Source of the DNA: Eledone cirrhosa
Taxonomy: Eukaryota
DNA: 64,000 nt
Assembly (NCBI GenBank): GCA_964016885.1
Contig: OZ024743.1
Span: 196,602,001 to 196,666,000, forward strand
Direction of reading: 5' to 3'
Shown: positions 441-62,700 of the stretch, in pieces
Position numbering within the stretch: position 1 is the first letter of the stretch
Layout: the number at the start of each line of letters is the position of its first letter
Position numbers and translations under genes: made by a program
The notes under the pieces: generated by a model
What the model saw: only the letters and a program-made list of their open reading frames with translations
What the model was told of the DNA's origin: nothing
Database searches by the model: none

Positions 441-709
441 AGTATTAAGGATACTATTTATGGTTATGTATGTAATAAAACCTTTAATGGTAATATATTA
501 TTTATACAAACCTTAAATAGTGAAAGATAGTCATTAATTACTATCCTATTACCAGTAAGATAAATAGCTCAATGTAATAACATCAGTTGTTTTACAGAGC
601 AGTTATATAGAGATTACAATAATCAAAGTTCAGTTTAAGTCATTTATTTGCTTACAACTATTGTAAGCAAATAAATGACTTAAACTGAACTTTGATTATT
701 GTAATCTCT
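441..709 (-). mobile_element. TA-flanked foldback element (49-bp perfect arms, 3-nt loop) with unique tail
   Basis: 609-657 is the reverse complement of 661-709 around loop CTA. The tail 441-608 carries GCTC...GAGC (600-567 on minus). (TA)n on both sides. Confidence 0.7.
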
Positions 710-2307
710 CTCTCTATATATATATATACATATATATATACATATATATATACATACATATATACATATACATACATATATATATATACATATATACATA
801 CATATATATATATACATATATACATACATATATATATATACATACATATATATATATACATATATACATACATATATATATACATATATACATACATATA
901 TATCTACATATATACATATATATATACATACATATATATATACATATATATATACATATATACATATATATATACATACATATATATATACATATATATA
1001 TACATATATACATATATATATACATATATACATACATACATATATATATACATATATATATACATATACATATATACATACATACATATATATATACATA
1101 TATATATACATACATATATATATACATATATATATACATACATATATATATACATATATATATACATACATATAATATACATATATATATACATACATAT
1201 ATATATACATATATATATACATACATATATATATACATACATATATATATACATATATATATACATACATACATATATATATACATATATACATACATAC
1301 ATATATACATACATACATATATACATACATACATATATATATACATATATACATACATATATATATACATACATACATATATATATACATACATACATAC
1401 ATACATATATACATACATACATATATATATACATACATACATATATATATACATACATACATACATACATACATATATACATACATACATACATATATAC
1501 ATACATATATATATACATACATACATATATATATACATATATACATACATATATATATATATACATACATATATATATACATATATACATACATATATAT
1601 ATACATATATACATACATACATATATGTATACATATATACATACATATATATATACATATATACATATATATATACCAACATACATATATATATACATAT
1701 ATACATACATACATATATATATACATATATACATACATACATATATACATACATACATATATATATACATATATACATACATATATACATACATACATAC
1801 ATACATATATACATACATACATACATATATACATACATATATATATACATACATACATACATACATACATACATACATATATACATACATACATATATAT
1901 ATACATACATACATACATATATACATACATACATACATATATATATACATACATACATATATATATACATACATACATACATATATACATACATATATAT
2001 ATACATACATACATACATATATATATACATACATATATATATATATACATACATACATATATATATACATACATATATATATATATACATACATATATAT
2101 ATATACATACATACATATATATATATACATACATACATATATATATATACATACATATATATATACATACATATATATATATACATACATATATATATAT
2201 ATATACATACATAAATATATATATACATACATACATATATATACATACATATATATATATACATACATATATATATATATATATACATATATATATATAC
2301 ATACATA

Positions 2308-2517
2308 ACTTTAACTTTGAATAACTTTGAAATGTTTTGGCCAGTATTGGCCCAGGCCATGTCTAACTTAATAGCACCACCTGGCGAAGTCTTTCAATTC
2401 AGGATTTGGGCACCATGGCCCATTCGAGAAGAGAATTACTGTTTGCGGAGACATATCCGGGTGTGGGTGGTTTGTCCGGGATTACTTGGAGGAATTTGTC
2501 CAAAGACTTCTTGAATA
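2308..2517 (-). mobile_element. 3' end fragment of a non-LTR retrotransposon (CR1-group-like C-terminus)
   Basis: Minus frame reads [33 protein letters not shown], resembling the FKxxLDKFL..IPD.P C-terminus of CR1-like ORF2. It ends in short CAAAGTTA-type repeats. Clade call is from memory. Confidence 0.55.
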
Positions 2518-4025
2518 CATACATATATATATATACATACATACATATATATACATACATACATATATATACATACATACATATATATATATACATACAT
2601 ATGTATATACATACATATATATATATATACATACATACATATATATATATACATATACATACATACATACATACATATACATATATATATATACATACAT
2701 ATATATATACATACATACATATATACATACATACATACATATATATATATATATATATATATACATACATATATATATACATACATACATATACATACAT
2801 ACATATATACATACATACATACATATATATATATATATATATATATACATACATATATATATACATACATACATATACATACATATATATATATATATAT
2901 ATATACATACATACATATATATATACATACATACATATATACATATATATATATATATATACATACATATATACATACATACATACATACATACATACAT
3001 ATATATATATATATATATACATATATATATACATACATACATACATACATACATATACATATATATATACATACATATATATATATATATATACATATAT
3101 ATACATACATATATATATATATATACATATATATATACATACATACATACATACATACATATACATACATACATATATATATATATATATATATACATAT
3201 ACATATATATACATACATACATACATATACATATATATATACATACATATATATATATATATATATACATATATATACATACATTTATATATATATATAT
3301 ATATATACATATATATATACATACATACATATATACATATATATATACATACATACATATATATATATATATATATATATACATATATATATACATACAT
3401 ACATACATACATACATATATATATATATATATATACATATATATATACATACATACATATATACATATATATATACATACATACATATATATATATATAT
3501 ATATATACATATATATATACATACATACATATATACATATATATATACATACATACATATATACATATATATATACATACATACATATATATATATATAT
3601 ATATATACATATATATATACATACATACATATATATATATATATATATATATACATATATATATACATACATACATACATACATATATATATATATATAT
3701 ATACATATATATACATACATATATATATATATATATATATATACATATATATACATACATATATATATATATATATATATACATATATATACATACATAT
3801 ATATATATATATATATATACATATATATACATACATATATATACATACATACATACATACATACATACATACATACATATATACATATATATATATATAC
3901 ATACATACATATATATATATATACATATATATATATATACATACGTACATACATATATATATATATACATATATATATATATACATACGTACATACATAT
4001 ATATATATATACATATATATATATA

Positions 4026-59400: not shown

Positions 59401-59524
59401 GCCCTCAGTAGCGATAGCTTACATTTCTAATAATTTCAAACCCAATCGCTGTTTCGAAAATATTCTTACTTGACATTACAGTTGCTAAGTTTATAGCTTC
59501 TAATTTGAATGGAAAAAGACGGGT

Positions 59525-59598
59525 GATGTGTTGGTGTAAATGGTAACACAGTGGTCCGCGGATAACCAAAGATGTGGGTTCGACTCCCATGTACGTCA
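59525..59598 (+). pseudogene. tRNA-like sequence (Pro-CGG-like, non-canonical) inside a 264-bp partial-tandem unit
   Basis: Acceptor GATGTGT/GTACGTC, D stem GTGT/ACAC, T arm GTGGG-TTCGACT-CCCAT, T5 terminator at 59608. Irregular anticodon arm. Flanking 63-bp direct repeats at 59411-59473 and 59675-59737. Confidence 0.6.
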
Positions 59599-59779
59599 AT
59601 ACACATCTTTTTCCATTTTTTCGAGGGTTCTTAACCCCACTATTAGGCTAAATAATTTCTTTAGTCAAAATACGGCGATAGCTTACATTTCTAATAATTT
59701 CAAACCCACTCGCTGTTTCGAAAATATTCTTACTTGATATATATATATATATATAATATATATATATATATATATATAG

Positions 59780-62700
59780 TAATAATAATAAATTTGAAGA
59801 CTAAAATCCAAAGAGGGCTCGATAAGGATAAATATATATCAAATATATAAGAACCGTAGAGCAAATATTTATTAAAATAACAGATTAAAGTTTAAGCAAA
59901 GAATCGCTGCTTTCACCTTTAACGGGATCTTCTGAAACTAACAAAGTCAATCTGTGAACGCAGAAATGAATATTTAAAAAACGTTGCAACCGGAGGAAGA
60001 CAGGAAGACGATACTTTGGTTCGTGGAAACGTTCCCTCGCAAAGAACGGGAAAAAACGAATATAATACGTCATTATTTGGAGCGGTGAAAAACAATTACA
60101 CTCAAAGACAAAACCACGTTTATGGTATAAAAGAAGTCGTAGATTAATATTCTATTAGGTGGTTCATAGAGACTGAAAAAACGAAGATAATACGTCATAT
60201 GTGGAGCGGGGAGAATAATTTCACGCAAAGACAAAACCACGTAAATGGTATAACTGAAGTCGTAGACTAAAATTCTAACTAGGAAACCGAATGATTCTCG
60301 GCTTCAGAGTTAAGAATAAAGTAAATAAAATACAGAGATAATTGAAATTAAATAAATACATCCACGCATCCATATACGTACATACACAAGCATACGCGAA
60401 AACACTCGATATAGGTATACAAATACACGCACGTACACAAAAAAAAAACAAAAAAAAAATCCGCACGCACATACATAACCCACGCAACGCCTATACCCGC
60501 ACGTATAGAATCTATACACCAAATACACATAAAAATATATATAAAAAAAAATATATATATATATATATATATGTGTGTGTGTGTGTGCGTGTATACATAT
60601 AATTAAATAAACGTATATAAATAAATAAATACGTATATAACATGCGCACACACATACCTACATGTAAATACACATATGTTCGGAGACGTACGTCAACCAA
60701 AACACAAAGTACACATATACACACACCCTACATACGTATGAACCAGCATACTCACACAGACGCAAAACTCACGTATACACATAACAAAAAGCATATGTAC
60801 CAGAATATATAATATATACGCCATAATATATACAATAAAATACACGTACGAGAAAGTATACGTACTTTCACAAACATACAGGTAATATATACTTACCCTA
60901 TACAAATAAGTAATGGTATAAACATAACATATACTTAGCTACCACACCAAGACGTAAAATATCCGCGTATAGTTCGTACTATCCGTTAGGGTATAATGTG
61001 GGGCTGTAATATAGGAAAGTTTTGTGCAATTTATGTTTACAAGCCGAAATTGCCTCAGATTTTTTGTTTAAGATGTGGTCTTTGGCGTAGAGTATTTCCA
61101 GGGCCTCAGCGGCGCAGAGGTCACATGGTCTTTTATTTCCGTTATACGATCTAGCCCTAGCTAGGATCTCCCAGTGTAACTTATATTGGGTGTGGTTGTT
61201 TTTTAGACTCAAGATATACGCTGAAAGTGACGTCATATTCCTTCTTAAAGGGTTACGAAAAGAATGGGTATGCATGTAAAGACGCTGCTTGAATCTATTG
61301 GCGATTAACCCTATGTAGGCCCTACGGGACGTGGGTGTTTCAACCTTACATTTGTAGACAATGTTATTAGAGAGGCATTTCCCGGTTAGTCAACCCGATT
61401 CCTACAATTACAGTTAGTACTAACTACAGGGTTGCACGTGTTTCTACGGCTAGGTAGTTTAGCTAAATTTGACGCTGTGATGTTATGTGCAAGGTTAGGA
61501 GTCGTAGAATAAGAAATTTTAATAGTATTTCTAATAAAAATTTTACTATATTTATGTGTAGGGGGAAATGCTTCATAATAAGGGAGAGAAAGATCATGGC
61601 TAATGGTGTGGCCACCTCCATATTATATGGTGGGTTATACCAGATAATGCGTCGGGATCTATTTCTTCTAGGTCTATCTCGTACTCTGTATATGCTACCT
61701 TATTGACAAATCCACTCCGAGCAAGAGCTTCATTGTAATATGTGGAATGGTCGTTGAAAATATGCTCGTTAGTAGATAGACGGGAAAGCCTCAAAGAAAT
61801 GTTTCTTACCAGGTTCTTAGTTATGCTGGCAGGATGGTTGGAATGCTTACTAATGTAATTAAGCGTATCATTCGGCTTTATATACGGGTAATGCAAGCCA
61901 TTCGATAAATTCAGGGTAACGTCGAGGTAATTAACGACTGAGAGGTTGGCATCAACCTGTATGGAGAGATTGAAGCCTTTAAAGAAGGCTGTGAGTTCTT
62001 TTCTGAACCTGTCGCAAGCACGTGGGTCGCACTTAGTCATGGTCAAAAGACCATCATCACGGTACAAACCACCGCCAACGTTGGGGAATTCTTCCTTGAT
62101 AGAGAAAAGAAGGAAAAGGCCGATAAGATCAGTAACCTCCGCAGAATCGCTGGCGCCCATACTCACGTCGAATGGGGTACTATTAGATTTTTTAATCCAA
62201 ATAGAGTCGTCGAAATTAATCACCGACTTAAGGGCATTGAGGATGACATCAATTTCGAAATCCTTAACCACTGTGAGTGTTTTAGCGAAATTGATAGTTC
62301 TAAGGAGAAATGGTAAAGGAGTAGTAATTATTGATGTCGAATTGGATAAAACGGCAATGTTCCTTGTTGCACCAATCAATCACCGCGAAAGAATTGTTCC
62401 ACAGTGCAAGAGGGGCCAAACTTCTTATTTCAGGTATAATTCTATCAAGAATCCTTTTACTAAGTCTACCTAAATCGGACTTCGTAGGGTTAATAAGCCG
62501 AATAGAGGGGTTGTTCGGAAAATTGGATTTGTGATCCTTCAGGGTAAAGTGGGGAGAAATAGGGTCCAGAGGTTCAGTTCGGTCAGGATGTTGAGATCAG
62601 AGGTGATTTTAAACCCAGCATCGTTGATTTCATTAATAACGCTCCGATTAGTTTTACGGTAATCCTTAGTTACAGCATTATGTAGCAGTTGATGGTAAGT

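Follow-up and report, generated by a model that had tools for sequence, protein, structure and literature searches.

Hydra-clade Penelope-like elements of Eledone cirrhosa have two small bulged hairpins in tandem, A and B, between their hammerhead and the start codon, and their copies end about 6 nt before A (site 1) or B (site 2). We propose, at a probability of roughly 0.7 and from positional and comparative data, that each hairpin binds the reverse transcriptase (RT)-endonuclease and sets one start of target-primed reverse transcription (TPRT); one hairpin per RT start would likely explain the one-sided tail of these elements. The proposal is built on the observed structure and covariation of the hairpins, their tandem pairing, the positions of element ends, the one-of-each pairing of those ends and the links to ORFs. 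"The window" denotes the whole stretch analysed, 64,000 nt of the E. cirrhosa assembly GCA_964016885.1 (contig OZ024743.1, 196,602,001-196,666,000, forward strand).

The coding element and its foldback relatives

The coding element of the window lies on the minus strand and comprises the following segments.

59790..62875, minus strand: Hydra-clade Penelope-like element, 5'-truncated and frameshifted, with RT, C-terminal GIY-YIG, long 3' UTR, tail and (TA)n
61651..62379, minus strand: RT core segment with YRDDG
61000..61377, minus strand: GIY-YIG endonuclease segment, C-terminal to the RT, with CDLC and CKH motifs and without CCHH

By domain order and motifs this element is assigned to the Hydra clade, its likeness to published entries being judged by eye. 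Read in minus-strand order, the RT precedes the C-terminal GIY-YIG, DKG is changed to DKT (SDKT), and the endonuclease part has the CxCX5C linker, CxxC and CxH, with CCHH absent. A Pfam search recognised neither the RT nor the endonuclease of the window's element, and the endonuclease was assigned by the motifs defined in PMC8557442. The earlier note on this DNA had called the element Naiad; this identity is rejected, since the element has no N-terminal GIY-YIG, no DKA and no CCHH. Full-length copies elsewhere in the genome carry an N-terminal RWK-type motif (RLRWR, RIRWR or RMRWK), and one of them, L258, has a 741-codon stop-free frame. A hammerhead was seen in most ORF-linked families, its core being degenerate in the coding family of the window, and Hydra elements were found inserted into (TA)n. 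The endonuclease query gave 60,808 first-look candidates in the genome, in which Hydra-type elements are very abundant and usually misclassified; no relatives of the element were found in viral contigs.

Foldbacks with a one-sided tail are present in the window, as had been described, and the 13 RCTC...GAGY sites listed earlier all exist, one of them shifted by 2-4 nt (36978-36939 on the minus strand, not 36976-36935). Five hairpins, marked below as overlooked, had been passed over, as had the inner helix, the bulge and the second hairpin (families are named by window coordinates).

567..600, minus strand: hairpin A, GCTC/GAGC, 5-bp inner helix, TT bulge; family without ORF link
35582..35605, minus strand: hairpin A, 56357 family; overlooked
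36735..36753, plus strand: hairpin A, subfamily of the 56125 family
36939..36978, minus strand: hairpin A, tail of foldback 36990-37417; family with its own Hydra ORF and hairpin B
40123..40142, plus strand: hairpin A, tail of foldback 39788-40115; neither ORF nor hairpin B found for the family
47432..47459, plus strand: hairpin A, GCTC/GAGC-GC; overlooked
47963..48002, minus strand: hairpin A of foldback 48009-48243, second copy of the 36978 family; overlooked
48664..48683, plus strand: hairpin A, tail of foldback 48276-48654; link to a Hydra endonuclease in L143 through end cluster C5
48884..48904, plus strand: hairpin A, tentative link to a Hydra ORF in L134
49602..49637, plus strand: hairpin A, GCTC/GAGC, 3' of arm 49497-49593; family without ORF link
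49925..49948, plus strand: hairpin A, 62 nt past the hammerhead cleavage site 49863; family without ORF link
53138..53218, minus strand: hairpin A, 73-nt loop; overlooked; family with Hydra ORF and hairpin B
54311..55860, plus strand: 469-bp tandem hammerhead (retrozyme-like) array with inverted head; stem 54807-54839 without inner helix
56125..56143, plus strand: hairpin A, tail of foldback 56000-56110; family with Hydra ORF and, at the B position, a reduced GCAC/GTGC hairpin
56357..56380, plus strand: hairpin A, tail of foldback 56203-56348; family with Hydra ORF and hairpin B
57869..57892, minus strand: hairpin A of foldback 57907-58023, third copy of the 56357 family; overlooked
58120..58139, plus strand: hairpin A with 1-nt bulge, truncated 3' end of a second autonomous Hydra family
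59817..59862, minus strand: hairpin A of the coding family, GCTC/GAGC with TC bulge, 5 nt past site 1

Elsewhere in the genome, the families 56125/36735, 36978, 56357, 58120, 48664 and 59862 reach their own Hydra-type ORF; the 53218 family also has one, and the link of the 48884 family is tentative. Seven of the 13 listed sites (tentatively eight) thus fall in ORF-bearing families, indicating that truncated copies, not parasitic RNAs, make up most of the foldbacks. The ORFs also led us to reject non-autonomous retrozyme status for the 56125, 36978, 56357, 58120, 48664 and 53218 families. No ORF link was found for families 600, 40123, 49602 and 49925; a seeming RT upstream of the 40123 family in L375 is a separate insertion.

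The notion, advanced in the earlier note, that hammerhead RNAs of diverse non-coding families share the stem so as to use a single enzyme of Naiad type is therefore mostly unsupported and in our estimate very improbable: the enzyme is of Hydra type, the majority of sites belong to families with their own ORFs, and the sole clearly non-coding tandem family has ends without the stem, although the four families lacking an ORF link could be non-autonomous users of a Hydra enzyme. This non-coding family is the array at 54311-55860, whose tandem units each carry a type I hammerhead. Of its 30 TA junctions, 15 fall at unit positions 134-139 and 13 at 208, which places them about 85 and 160 nt beyond the stem; the remaining two represent the arm end at 54789 in the window itself, apparently a microhomology jump. 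The stem at 54807-54839, formerly counted as an end signal, was excluded from the motif because it lacks the inner helix and the junctions lie elsewhere.

Structure, covariation and enrichment of the hairpin

The RCTC...GAGY stem forms the foot of a small hairpin with a bulge. The motif is real and larger than first described: after RCTC come a variable inner helix and a loop, then a 2-nt bulge on the 3' side and GAGY-RC. In 78 metagenome hairpins from 43 families, anchored solely on CTC...GAGn[AGT]C, inner positions 1-3 are paired in 70/78, 46/65 and 35/43 cases with a 2-nt bulge, while position 1 is paired in just 5/78 when the bulge is set to 0 or 1; none of 2000 permutations matched the observed pairing at these three positions. 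The same positions are paired in 22, 23 and 22 of 27 families of the E. cirrhosa genome, and RNAalifold on 36 selected hairpins returned the same 7-pair fold, with both-side changes at four pairs. The CTC/GAG core is invariant in the alignment, so that pairing is proven solely by the outer pair and the inner helix. The outer stem is almost strand-symmetric, and GAGYRCTC is near-palindromic, yet its last positions vary. At the gathering score, Rfam gave no matches in 10 hairpin-holding loci; an E-value scan of the window gave 462 matches, the 150 listed consisting of microRNA-like noise from TA repeats and hairpins and of one tRNA.

Whether a 4-bp stem exceeds chance depends on where it is counted. 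Over 44,265 non-microsatellite bases of the window (loop 11-40, 100 dinucleotide shuffles), the bare stem occurs 27 times against 19.9±4.0 in shuffles (maximum 31) and is not significant by itself. With the following RC, the window count is 11 against 3.9±2.0 (maximum 10). Among 106 recurrent TA-junction clusters from 119 evenly spaced 10-kb stretches of the genome, some of which are subfamilies or one element seen from its other side, 20 hold the stem against 4.7±2.1 in shuffles (maximum 12), and nine hold stem plus RC against 0.4 in shuffles (maximum 3) and one when counted in reverse orientation. The outer pairs in these clusters are AT in 10, GC in 10, AC in 1 and GT in 2. The enrichment is positional, at recurrent TA junctions.

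Such a structure might instead act on DNA or cDNA, with the GIY-YIG recognising single-stranded cDNA or element DNA and cutting about 6 nt away, so that the ends are resolution points. This we regard as unlikely. PMC8557442 does ascribe the tail to endonuclease-mediated resolution, the tail is reported to be needed for recognition of plasmid DNA by the D. virilis endonuclease (PMC11167929), and the strand symmetry of the outer stem would suit it. But the bulged inner helix is retained throughout while the loop varies from 7 to 73 nt, which is ill-suited to recognition of double-stranded DNA; at the two variable inner pairs, sense-strand G-U exceeds C-A/A-C by 7 to 1; and ends at site 2 would require B to be copied and then removed every time.

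Element ends at the two hairpins

Both hairpins precede the ATG in full-length elements of this genome, as they do in Hydra relatives from metagenomes. Of the 38 metagenome families whose 5' flank was long enough, 28 have one or more strict hairpins and 18 have two; the corresponding controls gave 2 for antisense, a mean of 0.39 (maximum 3) for shuffles and 0 for a same-size window inside the RT. By eye, the hairpin is also visible in the published consensi Hydra-2_Amil, Hydra-2_Ajap and Hydra-1_Ajap, the last with both A and B (PMC8557442, file S7), while in the same file Hydra-1_Amil shows no clear hairpin and Hydra-1_Obim a degenerate one at most. B lies mostly 18-37 nt before the ATG. In full-length copies of the coding family (59862), hairpin B stands 6 nt past site 2; an RCTC predicted right after site 2 was found in three of four families searched, two of them with the full hairpin B, and four further families also have it. 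For the 40123 family, two search patterns failed to turn up any continuation into hairpin B.

Of 28 informative element ends in metagenome loci, 22 fall within -12 to +6 nt of A or B, the other six lying elsewhere. Modal distances in the E. cirrhosa genome are 5-7 nt from the end to A and 6 nt to B, or 5-9 nt from stem to end overall, with secondary ends 12-17 nt from A in some families; the row of the 53218 family, swamped by its own TA-rich loop, was left out of this survey. The claim of a conserved, covarying cis-signal at a fixed distance from the ends holds, and positioning of RT initiation, its suggested role, is the best reading on positional and comparative grounds. Among 38 classified inverted insertions, 36 pair one site-1 with one site-2 end, two are 2+2 and none is 1+1; 41 of 262 TA-adjacent ends and nine pairs were unclassifiable. 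A complex locus, L113, was read by eye as 1+1.

The steps we propose, from positional and comparative data, are as follows. A read-through transcript would have the order 3' UTR, hammerhead, A, B, ATG, and the RT-endonuclease, probably a dimer, would bind A and B. The (TA)n target would be cut on both strands; each 3' end would prime in UA-rich sequence 5-9 nt on the 5' side of one of the hairpins, and the two antisense cDNAs would be joined at their truncation points. The product would be (TA)n, an inverted arm from site 1, the arm, a tail ending at site 2, and (TA)n, the tail consisting of hairpin A and the spacer that leads to B. B itself would never be copied as an end, making it invisible in the foldbacks of the window. 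In the fullest version of this scheme, which we hold only tentatively and at somewhat under even odds, a dimer of the Hydra RT-endonuclease would sit on the two hairpins of one RNA, both (TA)n strands would be cut, two reverse transcriptions would run simultaneously, one from each hairpin, and the cDNAs would be joined head to head, dispensing with second-strand synthesis of the classical kind.

The sharp ends 5' of the structure might also arise if the hairpins directed cleavage of the RNA, or formation of its 3' end, some 6 nt upstream, through a host nuclease or a self-cleaving fold not yet recognised, with ordinary 3'-end TPRT following on two RNA species; the lack of Rfam matches leaves room for a new motif. 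We consider this improbable, since two independent RNA pools would yield at most about half 1+2 pairs, far from the observed proportion, and since the ends spread over 5-17 nt on UA-rich spots while the motif is just 25-40 nt long. Initiation in Poseidon, moreover, is internal, on unprocessed RNA (PMC11167929).

Slighter still is the chance that the hairpins serve RNP assembly, translation or a promoter, the ends lying nearby merely because AT-rich flanks pair with the (TA)n primer. The proximity of B to the ATG fits such roles, as do the template continuing as TA at most junctions and the 56125 family, which has a sharp site 2 (35 ends) despite the reduced hairpin 9 nt on in place of B. Yet AT-rich sequence extends through more than 1 kb of the 3' UTRs, and still the ends cluster at two points, and the hairpin-to-end distance is near-constant whereas the A-B spacing varies from 55 to 137 nt. 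We thus favour the reading in which each hairpin sets one RT start. Non-Hydra Penelope-like elements of the same genome also have two ends, with 1+2 pairs in 5/5 classified cases, without the hairpin motif, so the motif is not required for tails in general; in a partial control, in which the 5' continuation was not recovered, a search for RCTC after the end of a non-Hydra family gave 28 scattered matches, whose dissimilarity indicates no hairpin common to them.

Significance and comparison with known systems

Penelope-like elements are the sister group of telomerase RT. If the fullest version of our scheme is true, such two-headed TPRT would account at once for the tail, its one-sidedness and the inverted pseudo-LTR, and the hairpins would amount to a portable RNA code by which a telomerase-related RT is made to start at an internal site of choice. 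The hairpin, conserved, present twice and standing at a fixed distance from either end, offers a defined RNA partner for structural work, and as an annotation rule the motif marks the true termini of Hydra-type elements.

In stringent LINEs and their SINEs (L2/UnaL2, RTE, the R2 3' UTR), the RT recognises a small 3' RNA structure that specifies the template. The Hydra hairpins would be alike in being small RNA structures recognised by the element's RT; the LINE stem-loops, in contrast, are single, upstream of the start and copied, whereas those of Hydra are paired and lie downstream of the starts.

A literature search found no description of the twin hairpins, Repbase/Dfam and older subscription Penelope papers lying outside its reach. 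The Hydra clade of Craig et al. 2021 (PMC8557442) shares with the present elements the domain order, DKT, the CxCX5C linker, CxxC/CxH and the absence of CCHH, as well as (TA)n targets, an inverted 5' copy and a one-sided tail and, in most of the ORF-linked families here, a hammerhead near the 3' end. The portions of that paper used here describe no tail hairpin, and give tails of 30-40 nt against 55-137 nt here. Naiad (PMC8557442) has (TA)n targeting, inverted copies and a tail in common, but its endonuclease is N-terminal, that of the window element being C-terminal, and it has no canonical hammerheads. The 469-bp array fits the class of animal non-LTR retrozymes (bioRxiv 10.64898/2026.07.22.740005); unlike Hydra elements, its ends are not marked by the Hydra hairpin.

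The choice of start site and the formation of tail and inverted copy in Penelope-like elements were an open question in PMC8557442, partly answered in PMC11167929 (Frangieh et al. 2024). The Poseidon element PAc of the latter work cuts and extends both strands of an AT-rich target, is a predicted dimer and starts RT at two internal sites bounding the tail downstream of the hammerhead, and it is the precedent for our proposal. The parts of that paper relied on report no conserved or duplicated signal, and PAc starts inside an AC-rich stem-loop within its ORF, whereas the elements described here end 5' of two conserved 5' UTR hairpins.

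A Hydra-clade coding element

One coding retroelement lies in the window:

About 59790-62875, minus strand, coding retroelement

Its RT is followed by the GIY-YIG endonuclease, and DKT, the CxCX5C linker, CDLC and CKH are present and CCHH is absent, a domain order and motif set that fit the definition of Hydra in section 11 of PMC8557442, as far as the portion available to us goes; Naiads, in the available text, differ by an endonuclease at the N-terminus and by the absence of canonical hammerheads. The element, assigned by domain order and motifs, is therefore a Hydra and not the Naiad that the earlier note had taken it for. 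Copies of its family are very numerous, with 60,808 first-look candidates in the genome search, and many further Hydra families occur in the sampled 10-kb stretches. At two other loci of this genome (G000:C6:49530808-49551217 and C2:262014105-262028798) Hydra copies stand head to tail about 6.65 kb apart, with equal scores and 830-codon open frames, which suggests recent activity of a family that has long units.

Two bulged hairpins between hammerhead and ATG

The 3.0-Gb genome around the window is rich in (TA)n, and many short foldback insertions lie between the TA arrays of the window. All 13 RCTC...GAGY sites that the earlier note had listed are present, one of them misplaced (correctly 36978-36939, minus strand), and five were absent from its list:

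35605-35582, minus strand, RCTC...GAGY site
47432-47459, plus strand, RCTC...GAGY site
48002-47963, minus strand, RCTC...GAGY site
53218-53138, minus strand, RCTC...GAGY site
57892-57869, minus strand, RCTC...GAGY site

In the 44,265 non-microsatellite bases of the window the bare stem occurs no more often than expected by chance (27 versus 19.9±4.0 in shuffles, maximum 31); the stem followed by RC does stand out (11 versus 3.9±2.0). An unselected sample of 119 evenly spaced 10-kb genome stretches yielded 1,234 flanks running into TA runs, which were clustered; among the 106 recurrent end clusters, some of them mutually dependent, 20 carry a Watson-Crick stem (shuffles 4.7±2.1, maximum 12) and nine the stem with RC (shuffles 0.4, maximum 3; reverse orientation 1), the outer pair being AT in 10, GC in 10, AC in 1 and GT in 2.

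The full motif runs from RCTC through the first strand of an inner helix, a loop and the second strand to a bulge of 2 nt (TT, TC or TA in most cases), followed by GAGY and RC. Scanning a Hydra RT alignment against metagenome contigs gave 78 loci at 39-51% identity, equal to 60 families at <80% DNA identity. Where at least 520 nt precede the RT match, 28 of 38 families have at least one strict hairpin and 18 have two (A and B); the controls give 2 (antisense), 0.39 (shuffles, maximum 3) and 0 (inside the RT). The 10 remaining families comprise three variants (L196, and L214 and L215 with TCTC/GAGA) and seven seemingly 5'-truncated ones, five of which have a member with the hairpin. A and B are 55-75 nt apart in the metagenome loci, where B mostly lies 18-37 nt 5' of an ATG, and 76-137 nt apart in the measured families of Eledone cirrhosa, where B directly follows the tail in full-length copies of six families. 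By eye, A follows the hammerhead in the published consensus sequences Hydra-2_Amil (coral) and Hydra-2_Ajap (sea cucumber), Hydra-1_Ajap starts with A and B, and two variants are seen in Hydra-1_Crog; in Hydra-1_Amil no hairpin is clear, and in Hydra-1_Obim there is a degenerate one at most.

The covariation claimed for the stem is upheld and extends into the inner helix. In 78 hairpins from 43 metagenome families, anchored on CTC...GAGn[AGT]C alone, a 2-nt bulge pairs inner positions 1-3 in 70/78, 46/65 and 35/43; a 0- or 1-nt bulge pairs position 1 in 5/78, and no permutation out of 2000 attained the Watson-Crick counts seen at positions 1-3. The corresponding values in 27 families of this genome, selected for a Watson-Crick outer stem, are 22/27, 23/27 and 22/27. 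A selected alignment of 36 hairpins (28 of 31 metagenome hairpins with 12-18 nt loops, L219 and both of L241 being left out for poor bulge fit, plus eight window sites) folds to the same seven pairs, with 97% of cells paired and 58 altered on both sides in counts that ignore kinship; GC, AU and UA are all seen at the outer pair, and the three core pairs are invariant. In the family with its stem at 56125, the B position is taken by no more than a small GCAC/GTGC hairpin (L296-L307), possibly a compensatory swap of the core T-A pair. Searched against Rfam at gathering score, 10 loci were without a match. On these comparisons the hairpin is a real, clade-wide RNA motif with a putative function.

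Copy ends, foldbacks and tandem arrays

Copies terminate at two sites, and the short distance from arm end to stem that the earlier note had seen is borne out: site 1 lies modally 5-9 nt 5' of A, and site 2 lies 6 nt 5' of B in the measured families (9 nt in the 56125 family). Of 28 informative metagenome ends (10 more rows ran off the contig), 22 fall in the interval from -12 to +6 nt relative to A or B and six elsewhere. The junction template usually runs on as TA; that the placement merely coincides with AT-rich flanks seems very improbable to us. Across 186 loci, those inverted insertions that have no internal TA run combine one end of each kind in 36 cases and two site-2 ends in two, with no site-1 pair and nine insertions having an unclassified end; one complex locus is seemingly 1+1 by eye. 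Non-Hydra Penelope-like elements (PLEs) of the same genome likewise have two ends and 1+2 pairing, without the hairpin motif. At L331:1501-1560 and L332:1501-1560 a Neptune-like element runs with its 3' end straight into site 1 of a Hydra tail, which suggests that the AT-rich start sites themselves serve as insertion targets.

The simplest reading, to which we give a probability of about 70%, is that one RT would be held per hairpin and copying would start a few bases 5' of it, aided by UA pairing over 2-4 nt with a (TA)n primer; two cDNAs, one per target strand, would then be joined at their truncation points. The product of such joining would be a foldback that carries its tail at one end, and B would never be copied as an end. 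Among the rivals of this reading, endonuclease resolution on DNA seems unlikely to us and RNA processing slightly less likely still.

The foldbacks had been regarded as non-coding RNAs using another element's enzyme. Tracing endonuclease genes downstream, or tails onward, links an own Hydra ORF to the families 56125/36735, 36978, 56357, 58120, 48664, 53218 and 59862 and tentatively to 48884, covering seven (with 48884, eight) of the 13 listed sites; the same tracing found no ORF link for 600, 40123, 49602 and 49925. Most foldbacks are thus truncated coding elements. In the 56125 family (window 56000-56110, L001-L030), many of 30 copies have the foldback centre close to the hammerhead core, on its 5' side. 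At L332, possibly three successive hairpins follow the tail of end cluster C32 and a downstream ORF was not found, making this a candidate non-autonomous family.

Two tandem hammerhead (retrozyme-like) families occupy 54311-55860 and 51960-52440. The former is a true non-coding family with a 469-bp unit and at least 370 matches, whose TA junctions fall at unit positions 134-139 (15/30) and 208 (13/30); these two ends lie 74 nt apart, and several inverted arrays have one of each. The stem at 54807 lacks the inner helix and the TA junctions of its family lie far past it, so it was excluded from the motif. The two families have in common a TTTAT|CGTTT junction similar to an end of a Neptune-like family, so the enzyme they rely on may be a non-Hydra one.

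Other features of the window include a foldback without the motif (23210-23308), by eye like the end of a non-Hydra PLE family (L035, L047); several 5'-truncated RTE-type LINE copies with (GAT)n ends within very long TA/TACA arrays (4026-23078); and a tRNA-like sequence, probably the head of a SINE, at 59525-59598 (Rfam RF00005, 39.8 bits).

Comparison with known elements

The hairpin motif is undescribed in the portions available to us of the literature found, including PMC8557442, PMC11167929, PMC4209133, PMC13282606 and a retrozyme preprint (bioRxiv 10.64898/2026.07.22.740005). According to the available portion of PMC11167929, a Poseidon PLE, for which a dimer is predicted, cleaves the two target strands, extends each of them and initiates at two sites within the RNA that bound the tail. 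The foldback-plus-tail layout and two-site initiation are already known; the twin hairpin with its conservation is apparently new and, with its putative function, makes a mechanistic question accessible to direct test.
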